This document shows, one piece after another, positions 19,479 to 27,467 of a stretch of DNA of 32,000 nucleotides. The stretch lies in NCBI RefSeq assembly GCF_001652585.1, contig NZ_LWLG01000004.1, forward strand, positions 30,001 to 62,000, given 5' to 3'. Numbering within the stretch: the stretch's first letter is position 1; every line of letters starts with the position of its first letter. The notes under the pieces are model-generated. The model made no database searches, was not told where the DNA came from, and worked only from the letters and a program-made list of their open reading frames with translations. Source of the stretch: Thermosulfurimonas dismutans (lineage in GTDB: Bacteria; Desulfobacterota; Thermodesulfobacteria; Thermodesulfobacteriales; Thermodesulfobacteriaceae). A program made the translations under genes and the position numbers.

Positions 19479-22112
19479 ATGTATACTATACTAGCAAGCA
19501 TCCTTTTTTACCTTTTGGTCCTTGGAGGTCAGGGTATGGGATTGGAATTGAAACCAGGTGTTCACAAACATACTCTCTCTAACGGTCTTACAGCCATCGT
19601 AGAGGAAAATCATCGTGCTCCCGTAGTAGCCGTACAGGTTTGGGTCAAAGTCGGCAGCATCTATGAAGACGAAAAAGTCGCGGGCATTACCCACCTCATC
19701 GAACACATGATCTTCAAAGGCACCCAAACCCGTGGCCCGGGAGAAATCGCCAGTACCATCGAAGGCTATGGGGGTTATATCAACGCCTTCACCTCTTATG
19801 ATTATACTTGCTACTACATCGTAGGGCCTAGAGAAATCTTAGAGGTAGCTCTCGACATTCTTTCGGATGCTCTATTCAACTCTGTCTTCGATCCCAAAGA
19901 GCTTGAAAGAGAAAAAGAGGTTGTTCTCGAAGAAATGCGAATGCGGGAAGACCGTCCCATGATCGTCCTCTCAGAGGAAGTCCTCAAAACCGCGTATCAA
20001 AAATACCCCTACCGTCGGCCCATTATTGGCTACGAAAGCACTGTCAAAAAGATCACCCGAAGGGACATCCTGGAGTACATCAAGAAATTCTATGTCCCAG
20101 AAAATATAGCGGTAGTAGTAGTCGGCGATATAGAATCCGAGAAGGCCTTAGCTCTTATAGAGCAATATTTTGGTAAAGTTCCCCGTAAAAAGCCTCCCAA
20201 AACCATTTTCCCAAAGGAACCATACGTAACCAGTCCCCAGTCGGTAGTCGTAAAACGTCCCGTAGAGGAAGGTTATTTTGAAATTGTCCTTCCGGCCCCT
20301 CCACTCACGGAAAAAGAGGCCCCTATCATGGATGTAATAGCGGCCCTCCTAGGAGAAGGGCGCTCTTCCCGCCTCTATCTCAAACTCCGCCGAGAACTAT
20401 CCCTGGTAAACTCTATCGAGGCTTCGGCCTTCACCCCTGCGGGTCCAGGGCTTTTTGAAATTTATGGTACGGCTCCTCCCGAAAACTTACGAGCGGCCAT
20501 CAAAGAAGCTCTTATAGAGGTTTTCCGTCTCAAATATCAGCCTGTAAGCGAAGAGGAGTTATCCAAGGCCAAGATCCAGGTACTCTCGGACTTTGTTTAC
20601 GGACGTGAGAGCATGGAAGGCGAGGCCCGCAAACTAGGAACCTTTGAAATGGTTACCGGAGACCCCTTGGCCGCCGATCGATATCTTGAAGCCATCAAAC
20701 GGATCACCCCAGAGGCCATCCTTCACGCCGCTCAGAAATATTTCAAGCCCGACAAGGTCGTCTCCGGAATCCTAGCCCAAAACGAGAGTCTAGATCCTAA
20801 ATTGCTGGCTGAAATGGTAAAGGAAGCCGAACTAGCCGCCCAAGGGATCTCCACAGGAGAGATGGCTCCAGTGATACCGCCCACTTATCGCATTTTAAAC
20901 AATGGCCTTAGGGTCATCATCCTTCCTCTCAAAGATGTCCCCTCGGTAGCCATATCTCTCGTTTTTCCAGGAGGGGTTCGCTATGAAACCCCCGAGACCA
21001 ATGGTCTTTTCCGAGCGCTTACTACTATCTGGCCCCGGGCTACCCGCAAACACTCTGCGGAGGCCTTAGCCACCCTCATTGAATCCTTGGGAGGCAAAAT
21101 CACCGGTTTTTCGGGCCGGAATACCTTTGGTCTGGAAGCCACCTTTCTCTCGGAAAATTTTGACCAAGGATTAGATCTCTTTCTCGAAGTATTACTTAAA
21201 CCGGCCTTCCCGGACAAAGAAATAGAAAAAGCCCGTCCAGAATTGATTTCCGCTCTTCTCCGTCAAGAGGACCAGCCTCTACAGGTGGCCTTAAGGGAAT
21301 TTTACCGAGTTATGTTTGCACCCCATCCTTATAGCCTGAATGTCTTGGGTTCCAAAGAATTTTTCGAAAAGGTAACCGCCGAAGATCTCCGGCGGGCCTA
21401 TACCAAATATGTTCGTCCAGATACTGGGGTACTTGCCATTGTAGGAGACGTCAATCCGGAAAAGGTTCTTAGCAAGCTTGAAAAGGCCCTTCGCGACTGG
21501 CAAGCTCCTCCCAATCCTACACCCGAAGACCTCCAACCTTCGCCTCTTGAGGCTCCTAGGATTACAACTGTGCCCAAACCTTCGGAACAAACCCATATTC
21601 TCTTAGGCTTTAGGACCGGAGGGCTTAACGATCCAGATCGATATGCCCTGGAGGTCCTCAATGCCGTACTCGCTGGACAGGGAGGGCGCCTCTTTCGCAG
21701 CCTTAGAGATCAAGAAGCCCTAGCTTATTCCGTAACTTCTTTCCTTACTCTGGGGACCAACACCGGGGCCCTGGCCTTCTACATCGGCTGTGCCCCAGAG
21801 AAAAAAGATCAAGCCCTCTCGGGGCTCTGGCGCGAGATCAACAAAATCAAGGAAAGGGGCCTCACCGAAGAAGAACTCTCCCGGGCCAAAAACTGGCTTG
21901 TAGGACGTTATGAGACCGAACTCCAGACCAATCTCTCTCAGGCCATGGATCGGGCTTTAAACGAAGCTTTAGGGCTCGGGTTCAACTATTTCTATAGATA
22001 CATTGAAAACATCAAGAACGTTAAGTTAGAAGAAGTCTTGGCAGCTGCTCGTAAATATTTGGAAGATGAAGCTTATGTTCTAGTGACGCTTGAACCTATA
22101 GAATATCAGTAA
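19479..22112 (+). CDS. Secreted M16-family zinc metallopeptidase (pitrilysin/PqqL-like) with two tandem M16 units
   Basis: An N-terminal signal-like segment. The HxxEH zinc motif (THLIEHMIFKGT) is in the first unit. The second unit (from about aa 470) lacks HxxEH, as in the inactive partner domains. Confidence 0.9.
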   Translation: MYTILASILFYLLVLGGQGMGLELKPGVHKHTLSNGLTAIVEENHRAPVVAVQVWVKVGSIYEDEKVAGITHLIEHMIFKGTQTRGPGEIASTIEGYGGYINAFTSYDYTCYYIVGPREILEVALDILSDALFNSVFDPKELEREKEVVLEEMRMREDRPMIVLSEEVLKTAYQKYPYRRPIIGYESTVKKITRRDILEYIKKFYVPENIAVVVVGDIESEKALALIEQYFGKVPRKKPPKTIFPKEPYVTSPQSVVVKRPVEEGYFEIVLPAPPLTEKEAPIMDVIAALLGEGRSSRLYLKLRRELSLVNSIEASAFTPAGPGLFEIYGTAPPENLRAAIKEALIEVFRLKYQPVSEEELSKAKIQVLSDFVYGRESMEGEARKLGTFEMVTGDPLAADRYLEAIKRITPEAILHAAQKYFKPDKVVSGILAQNESLDPKLLAEMVKEAELAAQGISTGEMAPVIPPTYRILNNGLRVIILPLKDVPSVAISLVFPGGVRYETPETNGLFRALTTIWPRATRKHSAEALATLIESLGGKITGFSGRNTFGLEATFLSENFDQGLDLFLEVLLKPAFPDKEIEKARPELISALLRQEDQPLQVALREFYRVMFAPHPYSLNVLGSKEFFEKVTAEDLRRAYTKYVRPDTGVLAIVGDVNPEKVLSKLEKALRDWQAPPNPTPEDLQPSPLEAPRITTVPKPSEQTHILLGFRTGGLNDPDRYALEVLNAVLAGQGGRLFRSLRDQEALAYSVTSFLTLGTNTGALAFYIGCAPEKKDQALSGLWREINKIKERGLTEEELSRAKNWLVGRYETELQTNLSQAMDRALNEALGLGFNYFYRYIENIKNVKLEEVLAAARKYLEDEAYVLVTLEPIEYQ

Positions 22113-22384
22113 GGAGCGAAATAGATTCGCAAAAACTCGCCAAAGGCCATTATGACGGCGGCCCACAAAGCGATTTTGACAAAATTTTCTCGGGAAAGTT
22201 CCCGTCGCAGGAACTGGCGCAGGAACCATTTAAAAATAAAAGCAAAGGCCAAACCATAGATAAAGGAGGCCAGCAAAAATCTAAAATTTTGTTTAAGGGT
22301 GAGTTCCAGGTTTCCAGGATAATAACGCAGGTTGAGGATTAGGAGCAAAATGAAAGGGACGAAATAGTCTTTAATCTTCGCCAT
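22106..22384 (-). CDS. Small hypothetical membrane protein
   Basis: 92 aa with about 3 hydrophobic segments. It has no recognisable motif, and the ORF fits exactly between the M16 gene and trpF. Confidence 0.45.
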   Translation of the reverse strand: MAKIKDYFVPFILLLILNLRYYPGNLELTLKQNFRFLLASFIYGLAFAFIFKWFLRQFLRRELSRENFVKIALWAAVIMAFGEFLRIYFAPY

Positions 22385-22402: not shown

Positions 22403-23023
22403 ATGGAGAGCAAAGTAAGGATCAAGATCTGTGGGATCACCAATCTTGAGGACGCCTTGCTCGCAATTGAGCTGGGAGCTTCGGCCCTGGGTTTCATCTT
22501 TTATCCCCGAAGTCCCCGCTATATAGAACCCGAGGCCGCCCGCAAGATCATAAGTCAGCTGCCCCCTTTTGTGACCACGGTGGGAGTGTTTGTAAATGAA
22601 AGCGAAGATTTCATCCGAAAAGTCCTTTCGGAGGTCGGACTAGACTTAGTGCAACTCCACGGAGACGAATCCCCAGATCTTTGTGCCCGTTTTTTCCCGA
22701 AAGCAATCAAAGCTCTAAGAGTACGGAGCCTCGAAGACCTCAAGGCTATATCGGCTTATAAAGGCAAGATCCGAGCTGTGTTGCTTGACACCTATGTAAA
22801 AGGAATCCCAGGAGGAACCGGCCAAACCTTTAATTGGGAACTGGCCAAGAAGGCCAAAAAATTCGGGATCCCTGTCATCCTCGCTGGAGGACTCAGACCG
22901 GAAAACATCAAGGAAGCCCTCCAAACTGTAAGACCTTTTGCAGTGGATATAAGCTCCGGTGTCGAGGCTTCACCTGGTAAAAAGGACCCGGAGAAACTCC
23001 GGGCCCTCTTTGCTGCTATTTAG
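22403..23023 (+). CDS. trpF: N-(5'-phosphoribosyl)anthranilate isomerase
   Basis: The sequence VRIKICGIT...FIFYPRSPRYI...VQLHGDE...LLDT...GGTGQTFNW...AGGL is the classic TrpF pattern. Confidence 0.9.
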   Translation: MESKVRIKICGITNLEDALLAIELGASALGFIFYPRSPRYIEPEAARKIISQLPPFVTTVGVFVNESEDFIRKVLSEVGLDLVQLHGDESPDLCARFFPKAIKALRVRSLEDLKAISAYKGKIRAVLLDTYVKGIPGGTGQTFNWELAKKAKKFGIPVILAGGLRPENIKEALQTVRPFAVDISSGVEASPGKKDPEKLRALFAAI

Positions 23024-23415
23024 CAACCTTCCATTCTCATCCTGTGCCAACGTTTATTGTAAGACCTTGCTCCTTTACAAAAGCAGGGGCAATTTTTCTG
23101 GTTATTCCAGCCTTTCATGTTCTTACAAAGTTCTTCACCTTTATGTTTCTGACAGTACTCTTCCATCTCCTGCCAAACCTTGGCTCTCACATCCTTCATC
23201 TTCTGCCAGTGTTCCCACATCATTTCCATCATCTTCTGACAATTCTTGCTCTTGGGGTTGACCTTTTCACAGTAGTGCCACATGGGACCTACCCAAGAAG
23301 GAACACTTTTCTGATAACTCGGCGGGTAAGAGCTCTCCCCTCCCTCCTGAGAAAAAGCCCAGCCGCCTAACATCAAAACCCCCAGCACCAAAAAGATCCC
23401 CATGACCTTCTTCAT
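23020..23415 (-). CDS. Secreted hypothetical protein rich in Cys, Met, His, Trp and Lys
   Basis: A signal peptide (MKKVMGIFLVLGVLMLGGWAFS). By my count the mature part has 8 Cys (HYCEK, KNCQK, EYCQK, ELCKN, NCPCFCKG, and a C-terminal EGC) plus a KMMEMMWEHWQKM segment. The SD GGAGGT lies 7 nt upstream. Confidence 0.65.
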   Translation of the reverse strand: MKKVMGIFLVLGVLMLGGWAFSQEGGESSYPPSYQKSVPSWVGPMWHYCEKVNPKSKNCQKMMEMMWEHWQKMKDVRAKVWQEMEEYCQKHKGEELCKNMKGWNNQKNCPCFCKGARSYNKRWHRMRMEGC

Positions 23416-23447
23416 GACACTTACCTCCTTTATGTGTTTGTTACTAA

Positions 23448-23789
23448 CTAATTTATTTTTCTCCCATACCGCCTAAAGGATCTCTTATCCCTTTGGAGTT
23501 CCTGAAAGTCCCGGTGGAGTTCCCGGCAATCACGGCGCAACTTTCGAAAATCATGTCTTATTTCCTTTAGGTCGTGACGAATCTCTGCAGGCCTGGTATG
23601 CGGATACCTTAGATCCTTTTTCAGTTCCCGATGGTCTTCTCGCAATGCCCGTCGATCTGCACGCAACTCGCGCAAGTCGTGTCTTATTTCCTGCCTATCG
23701 TACCTAATCTCCGACCACCAAGCCCTAGCTGCCCCTGCATTTCCCATCAAAAGTCCCCCGACTAAAAGCCAAACCCCAAACCTTTTCAT
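23448..23789 (-). CDS. Secreted hypothetical protein built from tandem 7-aa (E-[IL]-R-x-D-x-R) repeats
   Basis: A signal peptide (…NAGAARA|WWS) is followed by EIRYDRQ EIRHDLR ELRADRR ALREDHR ELKKDLR | YPHTRPA | EIRHDLK EIRHDFR KLRRDCR ELHRDFQ ELQRDKR SFRRYGR. It has a strong SD (AGGAGGTGA). Confidence 0.7.
   Translation of the reverse strand: MKRFGVWLLVGGLLMGNAGAARAWWSEIRYDRQEIRHDLRELRADRRALREDHRELKKDLRYPHTRPAEIRHDLKEIRHDFRKLRRDCRELHRDFQELQRDKRSFRRYGRKIN
23460..23711 (-). repeat. Coding tandem repeat with 21-nt (heptad) periodicity, arranged as 5 + linker + 5-6 units
   Basis: This is the DNA underlying the heptad array. For example, GAAATAAGACA(T/C)GA (EIRHD) recurs about 130 nt apart (about 23555 and about 23685 on the plus strand, as TGTCTTATTTCCT). 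Confidence 0.75.
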
Positions 23790-23811
23790 GGTTCACCTCC
23801 TGGCCATTTTA

Positions 23812-24231
23812 TTAGTAGTAGTTTCCGGTCTTGGTGCCCTCACAGACCTCTTCAATACGGTCGGTCACCAATTGTCCGTTTCTCCAAATACGCTTGTGGA
23901 CCTTGTGGCAGTAGGTCTTCTGGTTGTATTCCATGGGCGTAGCCTCCACCACTGCGTTTTCACTCTGATAAACTACGGTCTGCTGTTTGGCGACCGCCTC
24001 CTGAGTGGCCCGGGTGCTTATGGCCGTAAGTCCACCTCCAAGAACCGCCCCTGCGGTAGCCCCAATCACGGCCCCCCGCCAAGGATTGTGATGATCAAGA
24101 AGGGCTCCGGAAAAGGCTCCCACAGCCGCTCCAAGCCCCGCTCCCTGATAAGGGGCACTTTGAGTAGTGGTACATGCTGTAACCAAAAGTCCGACCATCA
24201 AAAGACCCCAAAACCACCTCTGAATCCTCAT
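23812..24231 (-). CDS. Lipoprotein with a glycine-zipper (Rick_17kDa_Anti/YMGG-like) domain
   Basis: A lipobox LLVTA|C follows a signal sequence, then glycine zippers GAGLGAAVGAFSGALL and GAVIGATAGAVLGGGL. I prefer the ATG at 24231 (GGAGG 8 nt upstream). The track start at 24240 is a GTG. Confidence 0.75.
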   Translation of the reverse strand: MRIQRWFWGLLMVGLLVTACTTTQSAPYQGAGLGAAVGAFSGALLDHHNPWRGAVIGATAGAVLGGGLTAISTRATQEAVAKQQTVVYQSENAVVEATPMEYNQKTYCHKVHKRIWRNGQLVTDRIEEVCEGTKTGNYY

Positions 24232-24271
24232 CCTCCTCACCTCCTTCGTTTTGTCCTTTGTTTTGGTTCAA

Positions 24272-24287
24272 ATCAAATGACGTGCCA
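24272..24287 (-). promoter_or_regulatory. Possible sigma-54 (-24/-12) promoter for the lipoprotein / heptad-protein / Cys-rich-protein operon
   Basis: The minus strand reads TGGCAC-GTCAT-TTGAT. The -24 element and spacing are perfect, but the -12 reads TGA instead of the consensus TGC. It lies about 40 nt upstream of the ATG at 24231. Confidence 0.35.
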
Positions 24288-24337
24288 AAGCCTTCTTTCG
24301 CTTTAAAAACAAAGGGTTCAGGCCCGAAGGCCTATCC

Positions 24338-24401
24338 AGAAAACAAAAGTACAGCTTTGTTTTCTCGACGATTTCGAAGGCTTCAACGACAAAATCGTCG
24401 A
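24338..24401. promoter_or_regulatory. Two abutting perfect palindromes, candidate enhancer (UAS) sites for the NtrC-type activator
   Basis: IR-A is AGAAAACAAA (24338-24347), N8, TTTGTTTTCT (24356-24365). IR-B is TCGACGATTT (24365-24374), N17, AAATCGTCGA (24392-24401). TCGAAGGC is also directly repeated (24374-24381 and 24398-24405). Confidence 0.45.
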
Positions 24402-24453
24402 AGGCCTCCACTGGGAAACCGAGTTTTTGGATAAAGTAGGAGGACTTTTACTC

Positions 24454-24469
24454 TGGCACGGGTTCTGCT
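24454..24469 (+). promoter_or_regulatory. Sigma-54 (-24/-12) promoter of the periplasmic-protein / kinase / activator operon
   Basis: TGGCAC-GGGTT-CTGCT has correctly spaced GG (24455-24456) and GC (24467-24468). GGAGG (24482-24486) and the ATG at 24492 follow. A sigma-54-dependent activator gene is in the same operon. Confidence 0.7.
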
Positions 24470-24491: not shown

Positions 24492-24872
24492 ATGAAAATG
24501 CGTATCTTTCTCCTAATAGGGTTCTTGTTTCTGGGAGCCTCCCAAACCGCTTTCGCCTGGGGAGGATGCTCACGAGGAGAGAAGTGGCGAAATGAGGTGA
24601 AAGTTATTGGTCGAATAATAAAAATTCGCCCACCACTGGCGGTATTGGAAACCCCTCAGGGCGAAACTTTATATATCCGTCTGGGGCCTTATCAGTTCTG
24701 GAAGGCCATGGGCTATAGCCTGAGAAAAGGCGAAAAAGTTATTATCAGAGGCTATCGGTGTGGAGATATCATTTTCCCGAAAGTCATTCGTCATCGAGGA
24801 GGGAAAATAAGACTTCGTAATGAAAAAGGGATTCCCCTCTGGAGGAAATATCGTTCCAGACCAGGGTGGTAG
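24492..24872 (+). CDS. Small secreted (periplasmic) hypothetical protein, probably beta-rich
   Basis: A signal peptide (MKMRIFLLIGFLFLGASQTAFA|WGGC). The mature sequence reads ...VIGRIIKIRPPLAVLETPQGETLYIRLGPYQFW...GEKVIIRGY...IRLRNEKGIPLW. The ideal SD GGAGG lies 5 nt upstream. Confidence 0.7.
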   Translation: MKMRIFLLIGFLFLGASQTAFAWGGCSRGEKWRNEVKVIGRIIKIRPPLAVLETPQGETLYIRLGPYQFWKAMGYSLRKGEKVIIRGYRCGDIIFPKVIRHRGGKIRLRNEKGIPLWRKYRSRPGW

Positions 24873-26106
24873 TAAAGGCTTGCGTTCAAAGGTTTTCTTT
24901 TTGGCAGGTTTTGTGGTCCTTTTTCTGAGCTTCATGGCCGAAATATGGTTGTTTCACAATACCCTTTCCGACCATCAGCGTTTCGAAGCCCAAAGGGCAC
25001 TCAACTTAATAGAAGGACGGCTCGCGGGTTACCTTGAATTGCTGGCAGTCCTTTCAGAGGTGCCACCCTACTTAAAGAACCTTGCCTGGTTGACCGATGA
25101 ACTCCAAGGAGATCCTGGTCTTACCGGAGTCCTGGTAAAAGAAGGGAAGCGCGTACTTTTGAACACCTTCCCCGAAGATATTCGGCTCGACAAGGAAACC
25201 TTTTTGGCCTGTCGGAAGGGATACGAATACCAAAGGGCTTTTTTTCTTTGTCGAAATTCCGAGCTTGCCCCTGGAAAGAACTTTTTTCTTTTGGTAGCCT
25301 TTGATACCCATTTCAAGGCCCTTCTTTTCAGAGAGGCTTTAGTCTATGGAGGTCTAGTTTTTTTAGGGGGAAGCCTCCTTCTTCTTCTAGCGGCCCTTTA
25401 CACCCAGAAACTTGAGAAAGAACGGGAAAACCTTAGAGAAAGGCTCATTTCCTCCGAAAGACTGGCTACCATGGGAAGACTTTCAGCCATGATTGCCCAC
25501 GAGATAAGGAATCCCTTGAACACCCTCTTTATGGGGATCCAATACCTAAAGGAGGCGGAAAACTCCGAAGAGATCCTTCCTCTCCTTGAAGATGAAATCA
25601 GACGACTTTCCGAACTTACCGGGGAACTTCTATCGCTTTCCCGAGGATTTGAGGTCAAAATCGAAAAATTTGAACTCTCGGAACTCCTTTCTCAGATTGA
25701 AGTCCGCTTCCGCCCCAAGATAGAAGCCAAAGGACTTGCTTTTCGGATTTCGGCCCCGGAAAAACTTGTCCTAACCGCCGATCGGCGGTGGCTTTATAGG
25801 GCGCTTGCTAACCTCCTTACCAATGCCATCGAACACGCTCCTGTCGGGGAATCGGTAGAAGTCTCGATCTCGGCTCAAAAAAGGCAAATCGTTTTCCAGG
25901 TTTGCAATAGTGGTTCTACCGTGCCGAAAGCCTTAAAAGGAAAGATATTTGAACCTTTTTTCACCACCCGGGAAGGAGGTTTCGGCCTGGGGCTTTACAT
26001 CGTAAAACAGGTGGCGGAGGCCCACGGCGGACGAGTCGGCTTGAAGACCTTTCCGGAAAAAGTATGCTTTGAGATGGAAATCCCCGGAGAGTCAACAAGT
26101 CTATGA
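24820..26106 (+). CDS. Sensor histidine kinase (2 TM segments, a periplasmic loop of about 135 aa, HisKA + HATPase_c, no obvious HAMP)
   Basis: The H-box is SAMIAHEIRNPLN, the N-box is LLTNAIEHAP and the G-box is GFGLGLYIV. The start is uncertain. The ATG at 24820 overlaps the upstream ORF by 53 nt and lacks a well-spaced SD. The TTG at 24880 (MRSKVFFLAGF...) is an alternative. Confidence 0.85.
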   Translation: MKKGFPSGGNIVPDQGGSKGLRSKVFFLAGFVVLFLSFMAEIWLFHNTLSDHQRFEAQRALNLIEGRLAGYLELLAVLSEVPPYLKNLAWLTDELQGDPGLTGVLVKEGKRVLLNTFPEDIRLDKETFLACRKGYEYQRAFFLCRNSELAPGKNFFLLVAFDTHFKALLFREALVYGGLVFLGGSLLLLLAALYTQKLEKERENLRERLISSERLATMGRLSAMIAHEIRNPLNTLFMGIQYLKEAENSEEILPLLEDEIRRLSELTGELLSLSRGFEVKIEKFELSELLSQIEVRFRPKIEAKGLAFRISAPEKLVLTADRRWLYRALANLLTNAIEHAPVGESVEVSISAQKRQIVFQVCNSGSTVPKALKGKIFEPFFTTREGGFGLGLYIVKQVAEAHGGRVGLKTFPEKVCFEMEIPGESTSL

Positions 26107-27467
26107 AAATGGCCTATCGTGTGCTTCTGGTGGAAGACGAAGAAGCCCAGCGCAAGATCTTGGGAGGCTATTTACAAAAAAGGGGCTACCAGGTGTCTGA
26201 AGCCGGAAGCGGCACAGAAGCCTTGAAGATTGTAGAGGAGAAAAAGCCGGAGATCGTTCTCCTCGACTGGCGGCTCCCAGATGATGATGGCCTGAACCTT
26301 ATCCCCAAACTCAAAGAACGCTCTCCCCTTTCGGCCATCATCATGCTAACGGCCTTTGCCACCGTAGAACGGGCGGTCTCGGCCATGAAACTCGGAGCCT
26401 ACCACTACCTCACCAAACCGGTAAACCTGGAGGAATTACTCCTCATTATGGAGCGAGCCCTTTCGGAACTAAAATTGAGGAAAGAAATAGAGGACCTCCG
26501 CCGGAAACTCGCCGAACTTCTACCTATAGAAATCAGAGATTTTGTAGCCGAAAGTCATAAAATGAAAGAAATCTTGGCCTTGGTCTCCAAAGTGGCTCCC
26601 ACCGAGGCCACCGTACTCATCACCGGAGAACCTGGAACCGGAAAGGAAGTCCTGGCTCATCTCATTCACCATTTGAGTAGCCGGAAAGAGGGCCCCTTCG
26701 TTCAAGTAAACTGTGCCGCCATTCCGGAGGGTTTATTAGAATCCGAGCTCTTTGGGCATGAGAAGGGGGCCTTTACCGGAGCCGACCGTGCTAAACCGGG
26801 CCTTTTCGAGGAAGCTCATAGGGGAACCATTTTCCTTGACGAGGTTGGGGAACTGCCACTGCCCTTGCAGGCCAAGCTCCTTCGAGTGCTACAGGACGGG
26901 ACCTTCCGGCGAATAGGGGATACCAAGGAAATCAAAGTGGATGCCCGGATTATCGCAGCCACCAATCGAGATCTCGAAGAGATGGTCAAAAAGGGCGCTT
27001 TCCGGGAAGATCTTTTCTGGCGGTTAAACGTCTTCAGCCTCCGACTCCCACCGTTAAAGGAAAGGCGAGAGGACATTGTACCTTTGGCAAAGTATTTTTT
27101 GCAGAAATTTTCTGAAAAATACGGCAAGGCCGTCCAAGGATTTAGCCGTGAGGTCCTAGAGTTCTTGCTTACCTATCACTTTCCCGGAAACGTTAGAGAA
27201 CTCAAAAACCTCATCGAACGCGCCGTTATCCTAGTCGAAGAGGAAACTATAACCATCAAGGATCTGGCCTTAATGCCAGAAGGTCCTGAAGACTTAACCC
27301 AAAAACTTTTAACACTCCCTCTAACGGAAGCGGTTGAGACTTTGGAAAAGATCCGCATAAGGGAGGCCCTAGAAAAAGCAGGAGGAGTAAAGACCAGAGC
27401 CGCTGAATTTTTAGGTATTTCCGAAAGGGTTCTAAGGTACAAACTCGAAAAATATAAATTCAATTAA
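26103..27467 (+). CDS. Sigma-54-dependent response regulator (NtrC/ZraR/AtoC family: REC + AAA+ + Fis-type HTH)
   Basis: REC is VLLVEDEE...LLDWRLPDDDG, Walker A is GEPGTGKE, the sigma-54 contact loop is GAFTGA (EKGAFTGAD), and the C-terminal HTH is TRAAEFLGISERVLRYKLEKY. The ATG overlaps the kinase stop (ATGA). Confidence 0.92.
   Translation: MKMAYRVLLVEDEEAQRKILGGYLQKRGYQVSEAGSGTEALKIVEEKKPEIVLLDWRLPDDDGLNLIPKLKERSPLSAIIMLTAFATVERAVSAMKLGAYHYLTKPVNLEELLLIMERALSELKLRKEIEDLRRKLAELLPIEIRDFVAESHKMKEILALVSKVAPTEATVLITGEPGTGKEVLAHLIHHLSSRKEGPFVQVNCAAIPEGLLESELFGHEKGAFTGADRAKPGLFEEAHRGTIFLDEVGELPLPLQAKLLRVLQDGTFRRIGDTKEIKVDARIIAATNRDLEEMVKKGAFREDLFWRLNVFSLRLPPLKERREDIVPLAKYFLQKFSEKYGKAVQGFSREVLEFLLTYHFPGNVRELKNLIERAVILVEEETITIKDLALMPEGPEDLTQKLLTLPLTEAVETLEKIRIREALEKAGGVKTRAAEFLGISERVLRYKLEKYKFN

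Follow-up and report, generated by a model that had tools for sequence, protein, structure and literature searches.

A probably exported Arg/Asp heptad-repeat protein of Thermosulfurimonas dismutans, predicted to form a helical hairpin, and its uncharacterised family associated with envelope-stress regulators

Small periplasmic proteins of the Spy, CpxP and ZraP type are central to the sensing and repair of envelope damage in Gram-negative bacteria. The Spy/CpxP family (LTXXQ, PF07813; Metal_resist, PF13801; with CnrX of the CnrYXH system) consists of stress-induced periplasmic proteins shaped as long helical hairpins, encoded beside envelope two-component systems and inside operons of extracytoplasmic function (ECF) sigma factors. 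To our knowledge, the characterised small periplasmic stress proteins are all members of a single superfamily, known from a few model proteobacteria. Here we describe a gene for a heptad-repeat protein in a 32,000-nt stretch of Thermosulfurimonas dismutans DNA (contig NZ_LWLG01000004.1, positions 30,001 to 62,000; hereafter the window). Stress-regulated small periplasmic helical proteins are known; what is new is an unrelated, very regular Arg/Asp heptad scaffold. From sequence comparison, the protein is a divergent member of a large uncharacterised secreted family of Arg/Asp/Glu heptad repeats, whose expression seems tied to extracytoplasmic stress signalling: through ECF sigma factors in most lineages, and through sigma-54 and a two-component system in the window.

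The closest described layout is that of zraP. In E. coli, zraP and zraSR are transcribed from divergent sigma-54 promoters, both driven by ZraR, and ZraP binds zinc (PMC4987338); references cited in that paper present ZraP as both a periplasmic chaperone and a repressor of ZraSR. Since ZraP-like PF13801 proteins are also conserved in the ECF281 and ECF290 operons (PMC7826278), the known PF13801 family and the heptad family share two genomic niches. Like ZraP of E. coli and Salmonella, the heptad protein is small, alpha-helical in prediction and probably exported, and its gene diverges from an operon for a histidine kinase and a sigma-54 regulator, with sigma-54-type promoters on both sides; the regulator is 44% identical to ZraR. 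Unlike zraP, the gene lies within a three-gene operon, a related version of which lacks it, and the sensor domain of the kinase is unrelated to that of ZraS. The protein itself has neither the LTXXQ motif nor the Gly/His-rich C-terminus of ZraP, and the Spy/CpxP family in turn lacks the regular Arg/Asp heptad repeat.

A comparison with Spy, CpxP and ZraP had been suggested in the original prediction, a reading of the letters and ORF translations alone. It revealed no homology: hhalign gave a probability of 18% against ZraP, over the signal peptide only, and the profile-profile probability against a Spy/CpxP/ZraP alignment was 0.6%. None of 40 family members had a Pfam match over threshold, and no solved chain of Spy, CpxP, ZraP or CnrX was matched. 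We therefore rejected membership in the Spy/CpxP/ZraP group on these probabilities and the missing LTXXQ motif. What remains is a functional resemblance, which is no proof of membership: a small exported protein, predicted to be a hairpin, encoded beside an envelope-stress signalling system. The reading that we favour, with moderate confidence and by analogy, is that of an envelope-stress-induced periplasmic hairpin effector, a protective binder or holdase, which would be a non-homologous analogue of ZraP, CpxP and Spy.

The gene occupies positions 23448..23789 of the window on the minus strand, reading from an ATG through 113 codons to a stop; it is defined by the list of open reading frames (ORFs), its translation and homology to more than 400 clusters of like architecture. 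Its ribosome-binding site, AGGAGGTG (23794..23801, minus strand, recognised from the sequence), ends 5 nt before the ATG. Residues 1-23 (23721..23789, minus strand) have the sequence pattern of a Sec-type signal peptide with n-, h- and c-regions, supported by the 40-sequence family alignment A1: the N-terminus reads MKRFGVWLLVGGLLMGNAGAARA, that is, the basic MKR, a hydrophobic core and an A-x-A site (A-R-A), with WW directly after the cleavage point. No lipobox Cys is found near that point. The signal peptide lines up with its counterparts in 39 relatives, where conservation of the Ala at -1 is 90% or more; the secretion claimed in the original prediction is thus likely. The mature protein (residues 24-113) has a mass of 11.7 kDa, a pI of 10.6 and a net charge of about +10, and it ends in ...GRKIN, with no C-terminal Lys.

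From residue 27 onward the chain is composed of 12 contiguous 7-residue units without gaps. Five heptads form the first block (residues 27-61; 23607..23711, minus strand): EIRYDRQ, EIRHDLR, ELRADRR, ALREDHR and ELKKDLR. The linker YPHTRPA (residues 62-68; 23586..23606, minus strand) follows, then six heptads of the second block (residues 69-110; 23460..23585, minus strand): EIRHDLK, EIRHDFR, KLRRDCR, ELHRDFQ, ELQRDKR and the degenerate SFRRYGR. Sequence identity at lag 7 is 0.40, with 0.29-0.33 at lags 14, 21 and 28, while the maximum among 100,000 shuffles at lag 7 was 0.275. The coordinates, the signal peptide followed by gap-free heptads and the 5 + 6 architecture around a linker, all proposed beforehand, hold. 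Tandem Repeats Finder detected no DNA tandem repeat in the gene, so the periodicity is maintained at the protein level; for the same reason we rejected the idea that the repeat arose by a recent tandem duplication of DNA.

We lettered the consensus E-[IL]-R-x-D-x-R as c-d-e-f-g-a-b. Position d is hydrophobic (I, L or F) in 11 of the 11 heptads. Position a, the x of D-x-R, lies 4/3 residues from d and is hydrophobic in six (L, L, L, F, F and C; the others are R, R, H, K and G), so the protein has a recognisable a/d seam. The original view that this is not an a/d coiled coil, with a single hydrophobic position per heptad, is therefore only half right for the window protein, which has a second such position in 6 of 11 heptads; it does describe the wider family, where Arg occupies a in 57% of heptads. 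By sequence, the window protein looks like the more canonical outlier, and the typical member has one hydrophobic position per heptad.

The proposal of a single charged helix failed on the distribution of charges. The protein resembles single alpha-helix (SAH, "ER/K") domains in being very rich in Arg, Lys, Glu and Asp and poor in hydrophobic residues. For such domains to be stable, residues at i,i+4 must carry opposite charges. In this protein, like charges make up 24 of the 28 charged i,i+4 pairs and opposite ones 4, the reverse of that requirement, and we rejected an SAH domain on this count; at i,i+3, like-charged pairs number 19 and opposite ones 5.

Relatives were found by direct protein comparison. 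Pfam and NCBIfam gave the heptad protein only sub-threshold matches to generic coiled coils such as CENP-F and SMC, and a word-indexed search with the single sequence returned two weak relatives, each with a signal peptide and this heptad. With phmmer, 250 matches at E <= 1e-3 emerged from 1.84 billion representatives; the best short ones (E 6e-13 to 1e-8, 40-56% identity, aligned over residues 2-110) follow the query from the signal peptide through the C-terminal heptads. A profile search, which scored 8000 candidates, extended the family to at least 414 clusters (90% identity) at E <= 1e-5. Scans of GTDB representative genomes with the heptad protein and with the kinase gave no useful relatives. 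The named sources are metagenome-assembled genomes (MAGs) of Candidatus Binatia, Terriglobia and Deltaproteobacteria, and mostly soil metagenomes. Relatives are called "hypothetical protein" or bear misnomers: chromosome segregation ATPase, DUF342, EnvC, Skp or Lpp.

Two of these labels, "Skp family chaperone" and "Lpp", attached to some family members in source databases, name proteins that are indeed exported coiled-coil proteins; Skp is also basic and holds clients with its coiled-coil arms. Unlike Skp, the window protein has no beta-barrel core, and Skp matched through generic helices only, at rank 35 with E = 8. Unlike Lpp, it has no lipobox and no C-terminal Lys.

The consensus of alignment A1 starts with a signal peptide and continues as RxDRREIRxDRRELRxDRRELRxDRRELRRDLRxGAxxxEIxxDRxEIRxDxRELRxDRRELRxD. 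All members follow one plan: two blocks of 4-6 heptads each around a short Gly/Ala/Pro linker ending in E-I. The window linker, YPHTRPA-EI, aligns with the family x-G-A-x-x-x-E-I and resembles HPYKNRA-DI of the relatives P0033, from a Terriglobia MAG, and P0118. Across the family, c is Glu (81%), d is Leu or Ile and g is Asp, the positions on which the heptad count is anchored; besides position a, Arg occupies b in 44% and e in 64% of heptads. The window protein differs from the family in having Leu, Phe or Cys instead of Arg at a.

No curated family was found for these proteins, in line with the original prediction, which did not recognise the repeat family, and no known repeat family with a defined function emerged. 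Among the 40 members compared with Pfam and NCBIfam, none scored above threshold. One gave Metal_resist (PF13801) at E 0.0019 and one gave ZraP at E 0.0013, both far under the cut-off; P0267 and P0278 reached 27.6 and 25.7 bits with DUF7801 (PF25078) in the heptad region, where the cut-off is 33.2, and this family is absent from the matches of the window protein. A full-text literature search for the heptad sequence motifs found no paper.

About one third of the phmmer matches (for example P0034, P0043, P0051, P0065 and P0107) lack a signal peptide, carry heptads of the form [DE]-V-x-x-L-K-[TS]-D and were set aside as a different, apparently cytoplasmic family. P0034, P0043, P0045, P0051, P0065, P0105 and P0107 have 10-14 near-identical [DE]-V-[AST]-x-L-K-[TS]-D heptads; similarity between the repeats brought them into the search.

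Within the heptad family proper, many relatives (for example P0053, P0082, P0115, P0151 and L017-L040) extend into a C-terminal low-complexity tail, such as ...YGWNRVPNDNGRYGYAGNRYVGWDRNRWGWDRYRWNRD, rich in Trp, Tyr, Arg, Gly, Asp and Asn, of which the window protein retains only SFRRYGRKIN. Two loci, L064 (3500-4165) and L026 (67-741), encode two full block-linker-block modules per polypeptide; there, the hairpin unit has been duplicated in tandem.

The regulatory setting of the family was surveyed in 80 metagenome loci found with sub-alignment A2; the target was located in 62 and its neighbours were clustered. In 9 of the 43 loci with enough downstream sequence, a Pfam-confirmed ECF sigma gene of the same orientation follows at a distance of 13-289 nt. 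These nine represent four sequence clusters, and L015 is arranged alike. In L100-L103 the heptad gene diverges from an ECF sigma/anti-sigma operon at a distance of 97 nt, and in two Binatia-like clusters and the P0289 loci a convergent pair of anti-sigma (zf-HC2) and ECF sigma genes stands at least 1.8 kb downstream (1.8-3.2 kb in the two clusters). The linked sigma factors lie near RpoE, SigW and SigM in NCBIfam, below equivalog cut-offs.

A promoter-like motif, GT[A/C]AAC-N16/17-CGTCTA, precedes the heptad gene in most of these lineages. With up to 2 mismatches allowed, 30 of 52 loci carry it, nearly all at a distance of 7-61 nt upstream of the start codon, compared with 2% of 1073 control windows from the same loci. 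Exact copies are present in 29 of 106 loci, against a chance expectation of about 0.1, and with one exception they lie on the strand of the gene. Motif-bearing loci belong to many sequence clusters (L015, L024, L035, L047, L048, L060, L064, L067-L070, L075 and L076; also L086-L096, L017-L023, L031 and L078). "AAC ... CGT" is a signature of ECF promoters, and the motif resembles the sigma-W/sigma-M type. In L086-L096, a second copy stands ahead of the downstream ECF sigma gene, an arrangement consistent with autoregulation. ECF sigma factors usually regulate their own genes and are co-encoded with regulators and targets (PMC7826278).

In the window, the 700 nt ahead of the heptad gene contain no better version of this motif than one with 3 mismatches, as expected by chance, and none of the neighbouring proteins was found by tblastn at the family loci. 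Because the ECF motif is absent and the window neighbours are not near the relatives, the heptad gene in this lineage is apparently wired to a different envelope-signalling system. By the same absence of window neighbours elsewhere, the link to sigma-54 rests on this single locus.

Three genes for exported proteins run head to tail on the minus strand: a lipoprotein gene, 22 nt, the heptad gene, 32 nt, and a gene for a 131-aa protein. The first (23812..24240, minus strand; ORF list and Pfam), with a start at ATG 24231 or GTG 24240, encodes a glycine-zipper lipoprotein with the lipobox LVTAC, which matches Gly-zipper_YMGG at 31.9 bits and Rick_17kDa_Anti at 28 bits, both over the cut-off. The third (23020..23415, minus strand; ORF list) encodes an exported protein that belongs to no Pfam or NCBIfam family and contains 8 Cys along with numerous Met, His and Trp residues, as in MWHYCEK...MMEMMWEHWQKM...CPCFCKG...RMRMEGC. 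It looks like a metal- or redox-related periplasmic protein. In a database of 5.8 billion clusters it has one homologue besides itself (54% identity), at locus L097.

A pattern search placed a sigma-54-type promoter, TTGGCACGTCATTTGAT, at 24272..24288 on the minus strand, 41 nt before the lipoprotein ATG; its -24 element is perfect. A second, CTGGCACGGGTTCTGCT, lies at 24453..24469 on the plus strand, 23 nt before the ATG of a gene for a 126-aa protein. The sequence YTGGCACG occurs just twice in the 32-kb window: both copies are within this 250-bp divergent intergenic region, on opposite strands and facing outwards, and each has a -12 element at canonical spacing. Midway between the promoters, a repeat search identified a perfect 10-nt inverted repeat, TCGACGATTT-N17-AAATCGTCGA (24365..24401), a candidate binding site for an activator or enhancer-binding protein. 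A second, imperfect inverted repeat is located at 24335-24368.

The plus-strand operon opens with the gene for the 126-aa exported protein (24492..24872, plus strand; ORF list), which shows a weak match to the C-terminus of the magnetosome protein MamS (E 8e-5, 22.8 bits, cut-off 200). A sensor histidine kinase with HisKA and HATPase_c domains follows (24820..26106, plus strand; Pfam). Two predicted membrane segments flank a periplasmic domain of about 120 aa, and its 27% identity to ZraS covers the kinase core only. As listed, the kinase ORF overlaps the 126-aa gene by 53 nt, and its true start may be further downstream. The last gene (26103..27467, plus strand; Pfam) encodes a sigma-54-dependent response regulator of the NtrC family (Response_reg, Sigma54_activat, HTH_8), whose likeness to E. 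coli ZraR extends over the full length.

Such a neighbourhood brings up a role in signalling itself: the heptad protein could bind the sensor domain of the neighbouring kinase, or the anti-sigma factor in relatives, and feed back on the pathway. Feedback of this kind on a sensor is exerted by CpxP on CpxA, by ZraP on ZraS and by CnrX on CnrY/CnrH. The heptad gene does adjoin signalling genes in many lineages, either first in sigma/anti-sigma operons or divergent from them, and divergent from the two-component system here; the kinase possesses a periplasmic domain (about 120 aa); and ZraP, according to the references cited in PMC4987338, combines chaperoning with repression of ZraSR. However, about half of the family loci have no adjacent regulator gene and only the promoter motif. 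One family would also have to recognise two unrelated sensors, an anti-sigma factor and a histidine kinase, and the related operon at L097 manages without the heptad gene. We consider such an accessory role rather unlikely.

L097 has the trpF and M16 peptidase neighbourhood of the window. There the gene for the 131-aa protein begins about 40 nt beyond the lipoprotein stop (...TGNYY*). When L097:1-110 is aligned with 23380-23840 of the window (minus strand), about 370 nt are missing, which correspond to the heptad ORF and its ribosome-binding site: a clean difference of presence and absence. The heptad gene thus seems to be accessory, and both gain in the window lineage and loss in L097 are possible. 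Its base composition shows no signature of horizontal transfer: the GC content is 0.491 against 0.494 for the window, and GC and GC3 equal those of the genome.

Neither the exact 113-aa product nor its start variants of 99 and 100 aa occur in a collection of 15 billion proteins, in which the lipoprotein, the 131-aa and the 126-aa products are all present, from a 115,463-bp NCBI contig. Exact look-ups of the heptad protein and of the response regulator gave no match. The absence of the heptad protein beside its recorded neighbours, together with the L097 operon that lacks the frame, would suit a spurious or non-expressed ORF, its heptads a by-product of composition in an intergenic insertion. 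We find this very hard to credit in view of the strong ribosome-binding site at the right spacing, the intact 113-codon frame, a GC and GC3 like those of the genome, a confident structure prediction and collinear homology with hundreds of proteins that includes the signal peptide and the linker. By these signs the ORF is a real gene, apparently uncalled in public annotation, whose product is likely exported.

AlphaFold2 modelled the monomer with a pLDDT of 78 and a pTM of 0.59 without an alignment, and with 85.3 and 0.65 when the family alignment was supplied; the repeat region then reaches 92-96. One helix extends from residue 18 to 60-61 (pLDDT 84-96 over helix 1) and another from 67 to 111-112, with a break at YPHTR, residues 62-66, where the linker would form the hairpin turn. 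Foldseek returned antiparallel helical hairpins only (5j2l, Nup58, ING domains and the Cdc37 hairpin), with E-values that are not significant; the best, the designed protein 5j2l, has a target-normalised TM-score of 0.91 and an rmsd of 1.1 A. Spy, CpxP and ZraP were absent among these matches, and searches of the PDB by sequence and by profile found only designed coiled coils and a phage fibre. The mature protein is confidently predicted to fold as an antiparallel two-helix hairpin, in line with one of the two shapes first suggested for it and with the AlphaFold check proposed for the monomer.

With oligomerising antiparallel hairpins (the designed 2L-type 5j2l and 5j0k, Nup58/Nup54 and the N-terminal domains of ING proteins) the model shares two helices of about 40 residues. 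The likeness is of fold only (Foldseek E >= 0.04, 16-26% identity): those proteins are cytoplasmic, eukaryotic or synthetic, with no functional link.

The sequence also suggests how the two helices may pair. In the antiparallel register i + j = 130, every d meets an a', six layers are fully hydrophobic and no layer holds two polar residues. The same register sets Asp against Asp in 5 of 5 g-g' pairs and Arg or Lys against Arg in 3 of 5 e-e' pairs. Because antiparallel pairing puts Asp by Asp and Arg by Arg, the hairpin would form a ribbon, acidic along one side (g and c) and basic along the other (e and b). Such a ribbon would be frustrated when alone, and complementary to its own copies, to cations and to anionic partners.

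A different assembly has to be weighed here, since a uniform g = Asp and e = Arg is the pattern that designers use for parallel coiled coils under coiled-coil design rules. The protein could form a parallel oligomer, a rod some 13 nm long, with a kink at the Pro linker, that would act as a structural or spacer element of the periplasm. Asp at g and Arg at e in essentially every heptad would favour parallel g-e' salt bridges and disfavour the antiparallel g-g' and e-e' contacts, and every d is Ile or Leu, while roughly half of the a residues are Leu or Phe. An in-register parallel dimer, however, would stack R-R, R-R, H-H and K-K in four a-layers of the window protein, and Arg on Arg in most layers of the family. 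The family moreover conserves two blocks of equal length with a Gly/Pro turn between them, AlphaFold2 returns a hairpin (pTM 0.65), and neither a lipid anchor nor an Lpp-like C-terminal Lys is present. Together these points make a parallel rod distinctly improbable.

His residues make up 6.7% of the window protein, against a family median of 2.6%. The original prediction had all six at one heptad position and read this as metal or pH sensitivity; in fact they are spread over f (H37, H72, H79), a (H53), e (H92) and the linker (H64). Because the His residues do not share one heptad position, metal or pH sensing by this protein stays a guess. A related possibility is that of a periplasmic metal or proton buffer, in which divalent cations would bind to the Asp/Glu edge and to E-x-x-H-D motifs (EIRHD, present three times) and thereby drive folding or oligomerisation. 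In EIRHD, Glu (i), His (i+3) and Asp (i+4) share a face of the helix, the next gene of the operon encodes an exported protein with abundant Cys, Met, His and Trp, and the layout is similar to that of ZraPSR, in which ZraP binds zinc (PMC4987338); to the raised His content one may add the matches of one member each to Metal_resist and ZraP. These matches are far under threshold, in 1 of 40 members, and no homology to ZraP, CpxP or Spy was detected. The His residues are not conserved in the family either, and a net charge of +10 is unfavourable for cation binding. We regard a buffering function as unlikely.

The protective effector that we favour would work as follows. In most relatives an ECF sigma promoter would drive the heptad gene. 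In the window, the sigma-54-type promoter would drive the three-gene operon of exported proteins, divergent from a kinase that may sense the periplasm and a sigma-54 activator, and this neighbouring regulator would induce the heptad gene. Once exported, the protein would present, along each helix, a stripe of Leu/Ile at d, bordered on one side by acidic residues (Glu at c, Asp at g) and on the other by basic ones (Arg at e and b, and often at a). The ribbon may then pair edge to edge with its own copies; alternatively, one edge could take up cations and the other could bind anionic components of the envelope or exposed segments of clients.

Several observations weigh against this proposal. Scores of low-complexity repeats can be inflated, and we argue for true homology because the plan of signal peptide, block, linker and block is collinear. 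The -12 element of the promoter ahead of the heptad-gene operon is imperfect (TTGA, not TTGC), the window neighbours never accompany family members elsewhere, and L097, the closest relative found, has the same operon without the heptad gene, which makes the gene dispensable for that operon. The 113 aa contain no "LT" dipeptide at all, so the LTXXQ feature of the chaperone family is absent. Finally, the pattern g = Asp, e = Arg makes an isolated antiparallel hairpin electrostatically frustrated, and the AlphaFold2 run, made on a monomer, cannot discriminate between a hairpin and a parallel assembly.

A bolder version of the protective effector is tentative at best. It would see here an unrecognised class of envelope-stress proteins, acidic/arginine-edged hairpins that zip by charge into rings or sheets, deployed by ECF sigma factors in soil phyla and recaptured by sigma-54 in this lineage; cations, pH or anionic polymers of the envelope might set off the edge-to-edge assembly. 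If true, it would be a non-homologous counterpart of Spy, CpxP and ZraP that works on a different physical principle.

The heptad family is unrelated to that superfamily, comprises several hundred clusters at least and is covered by no model in Pfam or NCBIfam. It is found in the same regulatory niches in Binatia, in Acidobacteriota, in further soil lineages that have been little studied and in the organism of the window. The conserved ECF promoter motif provides a testable handle, as does the sigma-54/two-component pair here, and makes the heptad gene a candidate regulon member for uncharacterised ECF systems of soil phyla. As an unusually clean natural heptad with segregated acidic and basic flanks, the protein is also a test case for rules of coiled-coil specificity and charge. 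A family model would improve genome annotation, as the heptad gene is apparently missing from the public one.

Beyond the operon, between the M16 peptidase gene and trpF, the window holds a 92-aa hydrophobic ORF of no family (22106-22384, minus strand), whose 3' end overlaps that of the M16 gene by a few bases.

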